Positions 1,020-60,995 of a stretch of 64,000 nucleotides of DNA are shown in pieces. The notes below the pieces were generated by a model. The model saw nothing but the letters and a program-made list of their open reading frames with translations. It made no database searches and was not told the DNA's origin. This DNA comes from Pseudomonadota bacterium (GTDB lineage Bacteria > Pseudomonadota > Gammaproteobacteria > Burkholderiales > JBEEJL01): NCBI GenBank assembly GCA_043744215.1, contig JAYTVC010000050.1, forward strand, positions 94-64,093. The letters run 5' to 3'. The first letter of the stretch is position 1. Every line of letters begins with the position of its first letter. A program made the position numbers and the translations under genes.

Positions 1020-1047
1020 ATTAAACTGAGTATAATCAATGAGTTAC
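1020..1047 (-). repeat. 28-bp IHF-core interspersed element, copy 1
   Basis: Plus strand reads ..GAGTATAATCAATGAGTTAC. The AATCAA-TGAG-TTA core overlaps the ATG of the FAH-family gene. Confidence 0.6.
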
Positions 1048-1734
1048 ATATTTGAGCCAGAAGCACAAATTTCCGTCCCCGTTATCGGTAGTGACGCGCA
1101 ATTCCCTGTGCGTCGCGTGTATTGCGTAGGCCGCAACTACGCGGCGCACGCGCGCGAAATGGGGTTCGATGATCGCGAGCTGCCGTTTTTTTTCTGCAAG
1201 CCCGACAACAGCATTGTCGTTGTGCCGACCGGCAAAACCGTCGAGATCGCCTATCCGCCGCAGAGCAAAGATTTTCAGCACGAGATTGAAATGGTTGTGG
1301 CGATAGGCAAAGCCGGGCGCGACATCGCCATTGAAAACGCCAACGAACACGTGTTCGGCTACGCCGTTGGCCTCGATATGACGCGGCGCGATTTGCAATT
1401 GCAAGCGCGCGACAAAGGCAGGCCGTGGGAATTGGGCAAGGCGTTTGATCAGTCCGCCCCCATTGGGCCGTTGCAACCGGCGTTGAAAATCGGCCATCCG
1501 ACAAAGGCCGCGTTGTGGGTGCAAGTGGACGGCGTGGATAAGCAGCGCAGCGACATTGAGAAATTAACCTGGTCGGTGCCGGAAATCATTGCTTATCTTT
1601 CAAAATATTTTGAATTGCGGCCCGGTGATTTAATTTACACCGGCACACCCGAAGGCGTGGGCAAAGTTGAGCGCGGGCAGAGCATGCGCGGCGGCATCGA
1701 TGGCCTTGGTGAAATCAACGTGCGCGTGGTGTAA
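1039..1734 (+). CDS. Fumarylacetoacetate hydrolase family protein (fumaryl/maleylpyruvate hydrolase-like)
   Basis: 231 aa with an FAH-fold C-terminal domain pattern (VGRNYAAHAREMG, GTPEGVG). Adjacent to gentisate dioxygenase. Confidence 0.85.
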   Translation: MSYIFEPEAQISVPVIGSDAQFPVRRVYCVGRNYAAHAREMGFDDRELPFFFCKPDNSIVVVPTGKTVEIAYPPQSKDFQHEIEMVVAIGKAGRDIAIENANEHVFGYAVGLDMTRRDLQLQARDKGRPWELGKAFDQSAPIGPLQPALKIGHPTKAALWVQVDGVDKQRSDIEKLTWSVPEIIAYLSKYFELRPGDLIYTGTPEGVGKVERGQSMRGGIDGLGEINVRVV

Positions 1735-1747
1735 CGCGGGAGTGTTT

Positions 1748-2785
1748 ATGAACAAGGCCGCCGACATTCAAATCCAGCGCGAAGCGTTTTACGGTCGCGC
1801 CGATACGCAGCATCTTGCGCCGTTATGGACGCGGTTGAAGTCTCTCGTGCCCGAAGCGCCGACGCCCATCGGTGTGGCGCACTGCTGGAAATACGCCGAC
1901 GTGCGGCCGTATGTGATGGAGTCGGCCGAGCACATCAGCGCGAAGGAAGCAGAGCGGCGCGTGCTGATTCTGGAAAACCCCGGCCTCAAAGGCAGCTCAC
2001 AAATCACCCATTCGCTTTACGCCGGTTTGCAGCTCATCATGCCGGGCGAAGTGGCACCGGCTCATCGCCACACGCAATCGGCGCTGCGTTTTATTGTCGA
2101 AGGCAGCGGCGCTTATACGGCAGTCGATGGCGAAAAAACCATTATGCATCCCGGCGATTTTGTCATCACACCGTCGTGGACATTCCACCATCACGGCCAG
2201 GAATCGAGCGGGCCGATGATCTGGCTCGACGGTTTAGACATTCCCATCACCGCGTTTTTCAACTGCACCTTCCGCGAAGACCATTGCGATGACGAAGCGG
2301 ACATCACGCGGCCAATCGGTGACGCGCTGGCGCGTTTCGGCTCGGGCTTGTTGCCGGTGGGTTACACGCGCAAGTCGTTAAACTCGCCCGTTTTCAATTA
2401 CCCCTACGCGCGCACGCGCGAGGCGTTGCATGCGCTGGCCCGCGCAGGCGCGCCCGATGCGCACCACGGTTATCTGATGCGCTACGTCAATCCCCTCGAT
2501 GGCGGTTGGGCCATGCCGACCATGGCGACGATGATCCGTTTGCTACCGAAAAATTTTACAACACAGGCTTATCGCAGCACCGACAGCATGGTGCACATTG
2601 TGGTCGAAGGCACCGGTACGATTACCGTCGAAGGCACACGCTTCGACGTGTCCCCTCACGATATTGTTGTCGTGCCGGGCTGGATGCGCCAGACGTTAGC
2701 CGCAACGAGCGAACTTGTTTTGTTTTCGTATTCTGACCGGGTCGCGCAAGAGAAATTGGGTTTTTTCCGCGAGCAGCGTGGCTGA
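1748..2785 (+). CDS. Gentisate 1,2-dioxygenase (bicupin)
   Basis: Internal ATG of ORF 1667-2785 (MNKAADIQ...). Cupin metal motif HRHTQSALRFIVEGSG...HPGDFVITPSWTFHHHG. Confidence 0.85.
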   Translation: MNKAADIQIQREAFYGRADTQHLAPLWTRLKSLVPEAPTPIGVAHCWKYADVRPYVMESAEHISAKEAERRVLILENPGLKGSSQITHSLYAGLQLIMPGEVAPAHRHTQSALRFIVEGSGAYTAVDGEKTIMHPGDFVITPSWTFHHHGQESSGPMIWLDGLDIPITAFFNCTFREDHCDDEADITRPIGDALARFGSGLLPVGYTRKSLNSPVFNYPYARTREALHALARAGAPDAHHGYLMRYVNPLDGGWAMPTMATMIRLLPKNFTTQAYRSTDSMVHIVVEGTGTITVEGTRFDVSPHDIVVVPGWMRQTLAATSELVLFSYSDRVAQEKLGFFREQRG

Positions 2786-2849
2786 AATGAAAACGCTCAG
2801 CCGGTAAACCCGATACGATTTTGTTTCGCCGATGTAATAGCGTCAATTT

Positions 2850-4040
2850 ATGACAACAATAAATTCAAAACACATCCCCGTCATCATCATCGGCGCAGGC
2901 CCTGCGGGGTTGTTGCTCGGCCAATTGCTCACGCTTGCGAGCATTGATAATCTGATTCTCGAATTGCGCAGTTCCGATTACGTGCTCGGCCGCATTCGCG
3001 CCGGCGTGCTCGAGCAAGGCACATGCGATTTGCTTGACGACGCGGGCGTGGGGCAGCGCCTGCATGCTGAAGGCCTGGTTCACCAGGGTTTTGCACTCTC
3101 CGTCGAAGGGGTGAGCTACCGCATTGATTTAGAAAAATTAACCGGCGGTAAGCAAGTTACCGTGTATGGCCAGACCGAAGTCACGCGTGACTTGATGGCT
3201 GCGCGCGCAGCGTCGGGTGCGACAAGCATTTACGAAGCGGAGCAAGTCAGCCTCACCGATTTTGATTCATCGTCTCCCACGGTTCGCTACCAAAAAAATG
3301 GTGTCACCCATGAATTATCGTGTGACTTCATCGCTGGTTGCGACGGCTATCACGGCGTGAGCCGTGCCAGCGTTCCCGCGCGAGCTATGCAAACATTTGA
3401 GCGCGTGTATCCCTTCGGCTGGCTGGGCGTGATGTGCGATACGCCGCCCGTGTCGCACGAGTTGATTTACGCTAACCATGAGCGGGGTTTTGCCTTGTGC
3501 AGCATGCGCTCGATGAAGCGCAGCCGTTATTACATACAATGTGCGCTGGATGAAAAAATTGAACACTGGCCTGATGAAAAGTTTTTTGCCGAACTGAAAT
3601 CAAGATTGCACCCCGACACCGCAAAGCAAATGATCACCGGGCCTTCCATTGAAAAAAGCATCGCGCCATTGCGCAGTTTTGTCGCCGAGCCGATGCGCTT
3701 CGGGCGGCTGTTTCTCGCTGGCGATGCGGCGCATATTGTGCCGCCCACAGGCGCGAAGGGATTAAATCTTGCGGCCAGCGATGTGCGCTATTTGTCGCAA
3801 GCGTTTATCTCCCATTATCAAAACGCTTCGTCAACAGAACTGGATGGCTACTCGGAGCGCGCGCTCAAGCGGGTGTGGAAAGCGGAACGCTTTTCCTGGT
3901 GGATGACATCACTGTTGCATCGTTTTCCCGACGACGGCGACTTCGGCCGTAAAATCAAACAATCGGAATTGGAATATTTGATAAGTTCAAAGGCTGCACA
4001 GGTTTCGCTGGCGGAAAATTACGTGGGTTTGCCTTACTGA
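2850..4040 (+). CDS. pobA: 4-hydroxybenzoate 3-monooxygenase
   Basis: 396 aa. N-terminal [13 protein letters not shown] fold, [20 protein letters not shown] motif, typical PobA length. Confidence 0.9.
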
Positions 4041-4075
4041 AAAATCATGATAAATAAAATTTTCATTTCAATATC

Positions 4076-60104: not shown

Positions 60105-60111
60105 GCAGAAT

Positions 60112-60139
60112 AAAAAATTCAATATAATCAATTAGTTAC
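60112..60139 (-). repeat. 28-bp IHF-core element, copy 11
   Basis: AAAAAATTCAATATAATCAATTAGTTAC, just after the anti-sigma stop. Confidence 0.75.
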
Positions 60140-60264
60140 AAAAATAGATGATTTATATCCTTCATTTCATTGGTTTTAATTGGCCGGACGCTTGCTTCAT
60201 GTCTTTTATTAGCTCCCGAAATGTGAAAAAATTGGGGTAACTCACTAGATTAGGTAGTGCGACC

Positions 60265-60855
60265 ATGATTGACCGGGACGGATATCGCCCCAACGTTGGC
60301 ATTGTCTTATGCAACGCCAAGAACGAAGTTTTTTGGGGCAAGCGCGTTAAAGAGCACTCGTGGCAGTTCCCTCAAGGTGGCATCAAATACGGGGAATCGC
60401 CCGAGCAGGCCATGTTCCGCGAGTTGGAAGAAGAAACCGGCTTGCTGCCTCAGCACGTACAAATTCTCGGGCGCACGCGCTCTTGGCTGCATTATGACGT
60501 GCCCGCCCACTGGGTTCGGCGCGAGTTTCGCGGTAGTTATCGCGGGCAAAAGCAAATCTGGTATTTACTGCGCCTCGTGGGCCGTGATTGCGATGTGAAG
60601 TTGCGCGCCAGCACCCATCCCGAATTCGACGCCTGGCGCTGGCATGAGTATTGGATTCCTCTGGAAAATGTCATTGACTTCAAACGCGATGTGTATCGCC
60701 AGGCGCTGAACGAATTATTCGTTTATCTGCGTGGTCATGGTCAGCGATCCCATCGTGTGCGCACCGACAGACCCGAGCGTCAGCCCAATGAGGCGCAAGC
60801 CGACGAGAAGACGAATCTCGAAAGCACCCTACCCAAAGCCCCCATGACGGGTTGA
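60265..60855 (+). CDS. rppH: RNA pyrophosphohydrolase (Nudix)
   Basis: 196 aa. [15 protein letters not shown].. and Nudix box [23 protein letters not shown]. Confidence 0.9.
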
Positions 60856-60967
60856 GATTCTAACGAGTCTGTCCTATACTGAACTTATTGGTTAGACGTT
60901 GTCTAGACTAATTCCAGTTAAGATAATATTTACAGAAGCTGGAAATTTAAGGTTAGCGCATTTATTG

Positions 60968-60995
60968 CTAACGCATTGATTATATTCAATAATTT
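60968..60995 (+). repeat. 28-bp IHF-core element, copy 12
   Basis: CTAACGCATTGATTATATTCAATAATTT, just upstream of AAGGAG and the rubrerythrin ATG. Confidence 0.7.

Follow-up and report, generated by a model that had tools for sequence, protein, structure and literature searches.

We analysed a 64,000-nucleotide stretch of the genome of a Burkholderiales bacterium (assembly GCA_043744215.1, contig JAYTVC010000050.1, positions 94 to 64,093; referred to here as the window). An initial annotation of the window had listed twelve copies of a dispersed, 28-bp, AT-rich element and had read one of its strands as a binding site for integration host factor (IHF). The coordinates and strands of all twelve copies agreed with the window sequence. 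A 28-bp weight matrix was built from these copies, which it scored at 34 to 48 bits, and its use brought in 27940(-), 39457(-), and 55622(-) as three weaker copies, with 17149(+) as a further, doubtful candidate. The initial annotation had also suggested weaker relatives at three places. Those at 27940 and 55622 are real (24 to 32 bits), and that near 41845 is a degenerate, register-shifted fragment. The copies and their surroundings are listed below; L numbers denote loci of other genomes.

1020 to 1047, minus strand: strong copy, 13 nucleotides (nt) past the stop codon of an open reading frame (ORF) with an FAD-binding domain (581 to 1006); the ATG of an FAA-hydrolase ORF (1039) lies inside it
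14697 to 14724, minus strand: strong copy occupying the entire intergenic gap between rsmB and the PLD gene; element positions 2 to 4 (TAA) are the rsmB stop codon, and the PLD ATG follows the last base
19747 to 19774, plus strand: strong copy in a convergent gap, 3' of an AI-2E transporter gene
23207 to 23234, minus strand: perfect-consensus copy between a HAD hydrolase gene and a cNMP/GGDEF gene, with a 2-nt overlap with the HAD stop codon
27940 to 27967, minus strand: weaker copy (24 to 25 bits) spanning the folK stop codon and the start of a deoxynucleoside kinase gene; orthologous copy in L178
32133 to 32160, plus strand: copy separating two MacB/FtsX-type permease genes, with the upstream stop codon 1 nt away; orthologues in L178, L180, and L182
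35696 to 35723, plus strand: copy in the divergent hlyD-hyi gap, ending 2 nt before the hyi ATG
37407 to 37434, minus strand: copy in frame within queA, kept in four relatives
39457 to 39484, minus strand: weak copy (29 bits) within tgt
45041 to 45068, plus strand: copy between the cytochrome b561 gene and yceI
51537 to 51564, plus strand: copy 15 nt past the proS stop codon, upstream of an SLT transglycosylase gene; orthologues in L185, L186, and L187
55622 to 55649, minus strand: weaker copy (26 to 32 bits), 6 nt past the stop codon of a TPR-protein gene
57106 to 57133, plus strand: copy 11 nt past the stop codon of a DUF4331 gene
60112 to 60139, minus strand: top-scoring copy, 7 nt past the stop codon of an anti-sigma gene and 125 nt upstream of a NUDIX gene
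60968 to 60995, plus strand: copy ending just before the AAGGAG of the rubrerythrin gene

With 12 to 15 copies in 64 kb, the element occurs about once per 4 to 5 kb. The core 14-mer TTGATTATATTGAA matched the window eight times with at most one mismatch, compared with 0.03 matches expected from dinucleotide-preserving shuffles, and the 28-mer consensus matched five times with at most three mismatches, compared with 0.00 expected. The motif of the initial annotation is therefore present far above expectation, although the 14-mer that had been termed invariant is exact in only 6 of the 12 copies. The G+C content of the window is 51 to 57%, against which a block of A/T that has a fixed G/C at only one or two positions is conspicuous. 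An Rfam scan of the window returned a tRNA and CRISPR repeats only, with no match at the elements. A BLAST search of plasmids and phages with the 35-mer consensus gave chance-level matches only (E >= 0.08), and we found no account of the element in the searchable literature, including that on Gallionellaceae repeats and on IHF-site repeats of Betaproteobacteria.

The canonical IHF site extends over 34 bp and is made up of WATCAA, TTR, two steps 9 bp apart, and an A tract in the 5' half (Senear et al., PMC1874591). The steps are usually ApA and are the points of proline intercalation; the four elements fill only 15 to 17 of the 34 bp, so that 17 to 19 bp are free in E. coli, and a site that has the complete set is favored ~2,500-fold relative to random sequence (PMC1874591). 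A sequence logo was made from 105 copies, gathered with the pattern and a position weight matrix (PWM) derived from the window. The conserved span of this logo runs from about -5 to +29 (~34 bp) and extends beyond the 28-mer, which itself holds ~40 bits of information. T2 A3 A4 and T9 T10 G11 A12 T13 T14 are invariant or near-invariant, and A15 T16 A17 T18 T19, A21 A22, and T26 to T28 show strong conservation. The base at position 5 is C or G, and that at position 20 is G in 72 of the 105 copies, C in 18, and A in 12.

On the strand complementary to the consensus of the initial annotation, the element reads AAAWTATTCAATATAATCAAWTASTTA, and each part of the canonical site can be located on it. 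Positions 14 to 9 read AATCAA, a match to WATCAA in which T10, A12, and T13 do not vary among the 105 copies and G11 and T14 hardly do. TTR follows 4 nt on the 3' side as TTA (positions 4 to 2; T2 in 101, A3 in 105, and A4 in 99 of the 105 copies). The AA of WATCAA (positions 10/9) lies exactly 9 bp from the AA opposite T18 and T19, which are found in 93 and 101 of the 105 copies, respectively. The opposite half carries an A/T tract, although not a pure A-tract, in the form of TAWTTT at positions 23 to 28 (AAAWTA on the complementary strand). The IHF core WATCAANNNNTTR is matched exactly by 91 of the 105 copies and by 10 of the 12 in the window, as had been stated; the exceptions are 37407 (TAT for YAA) and 45041 (ATGAT for TTGAT). 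In the window as a whole the exact core occurs 15 times, 12 of them within elements. Shuffled windows contained 1.3, which corresponds to an ~10-fold over-representation, and 1.03 Mb of control betaproteobacterial DNA contained 1.55 per 64 kb. At the level of sequence, the reading of the element as an IHF consensus site is thus correct and more complete than had been claimed, since the second kink step and the A/T tract were also found.

The position of the element relative to genes was assessed for 74 copies, taken from nine related genomes as well as the window. Genes in the loci from metagenome-assembled genomes (MAGs) were called with a simple home-made codon-model caller, and the calls were cross-checked with Pfam in the window and with database gene calls in the syntenic loci. 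This revealed that 66 of the 74 copies are intergenic: 44 lie between co-directional genes, 9 in convergent gaps, and 5 in divergent gaps, and the rest are at locus edges. In the window, 11 of the 12 listed copies are at gene boundaries rather than the nine originally counted, and the sole intragenic one is that at 37407. Within co-directional gaps, 24 copies are in reverse and 20 in forward orientation relative to transcription. The median distance to the upstream stop codon in these gaps is 15 nt (no more than 15 nt in 22 of 44), and that to the downstream start is 51 nt. Copies lie mostly 0 to 15 nt past stop codons, in either orientation, and several provide the stop codon themselves, either as TAA at positions 2 to 4 or as a TAA made with the AA at the opposite end. 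The placements at start codons that had been pointed out in the initial annotation hold: the PLD ATG abuts the element, the hyi ATG is 2 nt downstream, the ATGs of yceI and the FAA hydrolase are inside it, and AAGGAG comes directly after the copy at rubrerythrin. Given the medians above, this association with start codons is secondary to stop-codon proximity.

The hyi start is fixed 2 nt after the element in the window (35696 to 35728) and in L178, L180, and L182, and it has no Shine-Dalgarno sequence. PLD (14696) and yceI (45049) likewise begin at or inside an element without a Shine-Dalgarno sequence. This suggests either Shine-Dalgarno-independent initiation on an A/U-rich leader or translational coupling.

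The genes next to the copies have unrelated functions (rsmB/PLD, FAA hydrolase, AI-2E transporter, HAD/GGDEF, folK/deoxynucleoside kinase, MacB-type permeases, hyi, queA, cytochrome b561/yceI, proS/SLT, TPR protein, DUF4331, anti-sigma/NUDIX, and rubrerythrin), which makes a specific regulon unlikely. No strict match to a sigma-54 promoter was associated with the element in the window. Independence of orientation, the placement of some copies between convergent genes, and the absence of a shared regulon favor a role at the DNA level that is neither that of a promoter nor that of an operator. The dedicated regulator that had been offered as an alternative is similarly disfavored, insofar as the element would be its promoter or operator signal, by stop-codon proximity, the use of both orientations, and the convergent gaps. 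No secondary structure was predicted for the element (z-scores of -1.5 to +0.5, no hairpin), and a stem-free, orientation-independent element argues for action on DNA.

Several known signals were compared with the element and set aside. An FNR/CRP-type operator (TTGAT-N4-ATCAA) is ruled out by the asymmetry at position 20, where G is present in 72 copies and C in only 18 of 105, so that the second half reads TTGAA. A role at the RNA level (for instance as a translational enhancer or as a site for RNase E) is ruled out by orientation independence. The other comparisons were made by eye. The Fur box overlaps by 7 nt only, and there are too many sites and no iron-related neighbours; only a half-box of the ArgR box is matched. 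Ter/Tus sites have GTAACTA in common with the element and are incompatible with its copy number and mixed orientation. The dif/Xer site has the same 28-bp length without sequence similarity, and the invariant G11 would be superfluous in a nucleation site for H-NS.

In order to determine how widely the element occurs, one genome per species was scanned with TAASNNWTTGATTATATTSAA, a 35-bit pattern, over 1.2 x 10^12 positions. At least 96 loci were found. Among the matches listed, about half are in Gallionellaceae, Gallionellales, or unclassified Betaproteobacteria/Burkholderiales MAGs, and nine genomes contribute 3 to 6 loci each; many of these 8-kb loci contain a second or third copy. The remaining matches listed are scattered singles, many in AT-rich genomes, as chance predicts. 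No match of at least 25 bits was present in 80 metagenome loci around ProRS orthologues from other Betaproteobacteria (61 to 75% identity; 1.03 Mb), and none of at least 15 bits in the 21 kb of a syntenic outgroup locus (QueA 68% identical; Sulfuricella sp. according to one source). The ProRS homologues comprise nine clusters at 89 to 93% identity, after which identity falls to 75%. As judged from these comparisons, the element is limited to one group of genomes and is not general to IHF-containing Betaproteobacteria. Extrapolation from the 64-kb window and the 8- to 21-kb loci gives hundreds of copies per genome.

To follow individual copies among relatives, syntenic loci were located via QueA and ProRS homologues in at least four other genomes (76 to 83% identity for QueA and 89 to 93% for ProRS). 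Eight of the nine assessable window copies have a counterpart at the orthologous position and in the same orientation: folK|dNK, macB|macB, upstream of hyi, in queA, in tgt, cytochrome b561|yceI, proS|SLT, and ~130 nt upstream of the NUDIX gene, for which the orthologues in L185 and L187 lie ~133 nt upstream. The sole unshared copy is that of rubrerythrin (60968), with none at the orthologous place in L185 or L187. A check of orthologous sites, proposed in the initial annotation, therefore showed that the copies are kept in relatives; differences in presence or absence were seen only between more distant carriers. In alignments, the element is the only conserved island within intergenic regions of 40 to 390 nt that are otherwise unalignable. 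The region upstream of hyi, for example, ranges in length between 66 and 386 nt in the four genomes compared, with the element as its only conserved island. Copies are 83% identical within orthologous sites versus 71% between sites, and orthologues have site-specific variants in common, such as CTATC...TTAC (queA), TATATGATT (yceI), and TAAG...TATTTT (proS). The YAANNNNTTGATTAT half drifts least among orthologues, as expected if the IHF core matters most. Because orthologous copies persist amid unalignable DNA and share site-specific variants, these comparisons indicate that the copies are old, vertically inherited, and under purifying selection.

In two of the related loci (L178, ~4780 to 4940; L180, ~3450 to 3660), palindromes resembling repetitive extragenic palindromes (REP), e.g., GTCATTCCCGCGCAGGCGGGAATC with an inverted partner, lie between the macB|macB element and the downstream gene. 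These insertions widen a 42-nt gap to 230 to 270 nt, and the element remains next to the stop codon. The palindrome resembles neisserial RS3-type repeats.

Copies that overlap coding sequence were inspected separately. The element within queA is in frame and encodes 11 residues. All nine QueA proteins of the carrier clade have DKIIQ(C/S/I/G)NQ(I/M/T)D(R/K)K at this place, whereas those of 10 non-carriers have D-A-I-x-Q-A-x-A-x-G-G-R (DAIrQAraaGGR), which is of equal length. As the motif has been written into QueA without an insertion or deletion, transposition cannot explain it, and selection on DNA is indicated. The queA copy thus points to selection that acts on the DNA and constrains a housekeeping protein. 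At yceI, the start codon (45049) is formed by element positions 9 to 11, and all orthologous copies have A at position 9, which yields ATG. The weak copy in tgt overlies the protein motif HNxHYYQxLM, which the outgroup also has; this copy may be coincidental and result from AT-rich codons. In addition, a 54-nt segment at the 3' end of queA is directly duplicated (37701 to 37754 and 37849 to 37902; 87% identical). The C-terminal tail of the window QueA is atypical: its homologues end in ...LIERxx, and the downstream duplicate would encode a more typical ...LIERGINQMKVDAA.

After masking of the 28-mer, the 150 nt to either side of the 74 copies were compared with one another. The flanks proved dissimilar in the window and in seven other carrier genomes; similarity was present only within two genomes, both SLM_LV1 Gallionellaceae. 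In these, the 28-mer is part of an ~130-bp unit with conserved flanks and terminal inverted repeats (TIRs; CTAGCAGCCTG…CAGGCTGCTAG) that resembles a miniature transposable element with inverted repeats (MITE). The left terminal repeat (CTAGCAGCCTG...) lies 34 nt upstream of the 28-mer, an inverted second IHF core follows at +58 (AAATCAATGAGTTG), and the inverted terminal repeat ends at +96. Some units have a nested G+C-rich palindrome (GACACCCCGCAGGGGTTCTTGTCCTATGCGAAGCAG). The MITE-like loci in SLM_LV1 are as follows.

L069, 1038 to 1215: MITE-like unit
L087, 6358 to 6487: MITE-like unit
L037, L040, L081, L074, and L029: MITE-like units

The terminal repeat of this unit is absent from the window, and no target-site duplication is visible at the window copies. 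The idea that the element might always form the end of a longer mobile element therefore does not apply to the window, where flanks are unrelated and the TIR is missing. Its description as a specific repeat family stands in part: a currently mobile element does not fit this genome (unrelated flanks, no hairpin, and eight of nine assessable copies fixed), and two relatives do carry the 28-mer on a MITE. A 40-bit motif could not arise repeatedly by point mutation, and so a copying mechanism is needed. The copies probably share a common origin, and the MITE is a plausible vehicle for their original spread; in the lineage of the window they have become fixed, vertically inherited sites.

Separately, copies 51537 and 60112 have ~27 nt of extra similarity 3' of the 28-mer (window 51538 to 51592 and 60084 to 60138), which reads …CAAAnTTTwATTnnTGGGCC. 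The similarity extends over 55 nt at 76% and is not found in the other window copies.

Three known classes of IHF site are relevant for comparison. At the RIB/RIP (BIME-1) elements of E. coli, IHF binds a site between two inverted REP palindromes (PMC3184786), and BIMEs have been proposed to act as supercoil-domain barriers (PMC6907758). The element described here is likewise a dispersed, extragenic, high-copy sequence with a consensus IHF site (PMC3184786, PMC6907758), and both are found past the 3' ends of genes or between the genes of operons and have architectural or topological roles proposed for them. Unlike RIB/RIP, it consists of the IHF-type site alone, with no flanking G+C-rich REP palindromes and no hairpin; its entire 28 to 34 bp are AT-rich and conserved, its positions are kept across species, and some copies are in coding sequence. 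The neisserial Correia element (CREE/NEMIS, 155-bp form) has a central IHF site that binds IHF in vitro (PMC2229807). It too is a small, dispersed, intergenic element of Betaproteobacteria with an IHF consensus, and the TIR-bounded unit of SLM_LV1 follows the same general design. In contrast to Correia elements, the window copies have no TIRs or conserved flanks and are fixed and orthologous rather than polymorphic. We know of no sequence similarity between the two. With single IHF sites, such as lambda attP H', oriC, and the upstream regions of sigma-54 promoters, the element shares the four recognition parts and the 34-bp extent. Those sites are unique, do a local job, and have a non-consensus half that is free to vary, whereas the present element recurs in hundreds of near-identical copies, to which neither a sigma-54 promoter nor any shared function of the adjacent genes is linked. 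The element would work like the IHF module of RIB/RIP and Correia, and it belongs to neither family. The comparison with both that the initial annotation had drawn was apt, as the 28-mer does sit in a Correia-like MITE in two related genomes.

We consider it somewhat better than even (a probability of about 0.55) that the element constitutes a family of high-affinity sites for IHF, or for a close relative in the IHF/HU family, with an architectural function at gene boundaries. The protein would contact WATCAA and TTR, the DNA would be kinked at the two ApA steps 9 bp apart, and the narrow minor groove of the A/T tract would be clamped on the other side, with a U-turn over ~34 bp as the outcome. 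Hundreds of such sites, approximately one per 4 to 5 kb, would punctuate gene boundaries, mostly just past stop codons, and this placement would spare promoters and ribosome-binding sites. Such sites may bend the DNA locally, compact the nucleoid, provide supercoil-domain or gyrase-related punctuation, or now and then modulate a promoter nearby. The sequence architecture, the over-representation, the restriction to one group of genomes, the orientation independence, and the purifying selection at orthologous sites are shown by the data, and we infer which protein binds the sites and what they do in the cell.

A number of observations weigh against this interpretation. A tblastn search of the recovered carrier loci with E. 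coli IhfA and IhfB as queries found no IHF genes. Conservation is well above what IHF needs in E. coli, in that the centre (TATATTG) and positions 5 to 8 are also strongly kept; given this excess, a different and more sequence-specific protein could be the reader. To our knowledge, IHF is present throughout Proteobacteria. The element is missing from 1.03 Mb of other Betaproteobacteria and from the outgroup, and so IHF alone does not explain its restriction. The logo is also partly circular, since its copies were collected with the window-derived pattern and PWM, and gene positions in the MAG loci rest on the home-made caller.

The excess conservation (~40 bits over 28 bp, far above the need of IHF) and the absence from other Betaproteobacteria that surely have IHF would be accounted for if some other DNA-binding protein, specific to the clade, recognized the element and the match to IHF were partial mimicry. 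Candidates for such a reader are a domesticated transposase, a tighter HU/IHF paralogue, or a response-regulator-type protein on a TTGAWTA-N2-TTGAWTA direct repeat; indeed, TTGATTA (9 to 15) and TTGAATA (18 to 24) form a direct repeat with 9-bp spacing. However, the second half-repeat is much less conserved (position 20 again being the variable one, with G in 72, C in 18, and A in 12) and drifts among orthologues, and four IHF elements at exactly the canonical spacing are unlikely by accident. One copy per 4 to 5 kb beside unrelated genes also suits a nucleoid-associated protein better than a regulator, and we regard this explanation as rather unlikely, though deserving of attention. More doubtful is a promoter module, with a perfect TATAAT on one strand and TATATT on the other, that drives or boosts the neighbouring gene. 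TATAAT is present in most copies, several copies lie 10 to 130 nt upstream of a start codon, and a consensus scan paired TATAAT with -35-like hexamers in the flanks at 51548 (SLT), 60128 (NUDIX), and 45052. A conserved -35 hexamer at 16 to 18 bp from the -10 is lacking nonetheless, as logo positions 35 to 40 are without information, and promoter-like matches in the region are only modestly raised (24 versus 15.3 +/- 4.0). Nine copies lie between convergent genes, an arrangement that does not call for a promoter, as against only five in divergent gaps; copies are nearer to stop than to start codons, and many touch or run into the start codon downstream, or take up the whole of a 24-nt gap, which leaves no room for a leader. 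We therefore think a promoter improbable.

An uptake sequence for the competence machinery, comparable to the neisserial DNA uptake sequence (DUS) or the 29-bp Haemophilus uptake signal sequence (USS), would have several properties that the element has: restriction to a clade, strong over-representation, occurrence in both orientations, and a sequence kept from species to species. The length and the AT tracts of the element also recall the extended Haemophilus USS. Its density of ~1 per 4 to 5 kb is nevertheless not the ~1 per kb of an uptake sequence, it is nearly excluded from coding DNA (66 of 74 intergenic), and an uptake sequence has no reason to hold a complete IHF architecture. No competence genes were seen in the window, and we judge this account very improbable. 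Little credence is likewise given to the copies being neutral, functionless relics of a short mobile element (a MITE remnant or the terminus of an insertion sequence), which would be at the bottom of our scale. The TIR unit in two Gallionellaceae genomes, the need for a copying mechanism, and the extra similarity of copies 51537 and 60112 are in keeping with such an origin. What speaks against relics is that the window and seven other carriers have no flank similarity, with no TIR or visible target-site duplication, and that copies are retained at orthologous sites amid intergenic DNA that has diverged past alignment.

The window contains further features of interest. A complete type II-C CRISPR-Cas locus is found at 5960 to 11299, with an array of 10 repeats (36 nt; Rfam CRISPR-DR34). 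Its components other than the array are listed below.

6652 to 6960: cas2
6987 to 7892: cas1
7879 to 11235: cas9 (1118 aa)
11257 to 11299: anti-repeat of the trans-activating CRISPR RNA, complementary to the CRISPR repeats

The locus is contained in the longest element-free interval of the window (1048 to 14696; 13.6 kb versus a typical 3 to 4 kb), which would fit a recent acquisition of the CRISPR-Cas island. Just upstream of the array there are two pairs of ~60-nt direct repeats (4783 to 4901 and 5699 to 5900; 75 to 77% identical), which may represent a duplicated leader region. An intrinsic terminator hairpin (19778 to 19809) directly follows the element copy at 19747. It belongs to a canonical intrinsic terminator family (AAAAAAGCCCGC…GCGGGCTTTTTT) whose members in the window are as follows.

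26 to 57: intrinsic terminator
5793 to 5824: intrinsic terminator
11478 to 11509: intrinsic terminator
19778 to 19809: intrinsic terminator

The idea of dispersed IHF sites is established; what is surprising here is the strict conservation, the queA case, and the existence of the element both solo and on a MITE. The MITE carrier in sister genomes supplies a tangible case of the route, proposed previously (PMC2229807), along which a site on a mobile carrier would become a fixed regulatory or architectural site of the host. For work on these genomes, the motif is a practical lineage marker, and it bears on the annotation of gene starts and gene stops in the MAGs. A more far-reaching possibility, which we put forward tentatively and hold to be clearly short of probable, is that this group of Betaproteobacteria has evolved a dedicated system of chromosome punctuation, in which IHF, or a bending protein peculiar to the lineage, reads several hundred near-identical 34-bp sites at gene ends, and these sites serve as barriers between supercoil domains or as insulators of transcription. 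If this is true, the sites would be kept strictly enough to supply stop codons and the yceI start and to rewrite 11 residues of QueA. A barrier or insulator role has long been proposed for BIMEs and was never cleanly testable. The function of IHF-site repeats such as RIB/RIP and Correia is unclear partly because palindromes, promoters, and mobility come together with the IHF site in them. A solo, selected site would offer a clean natural system in which to ask what genome-wide arrays of strong bending sites do.

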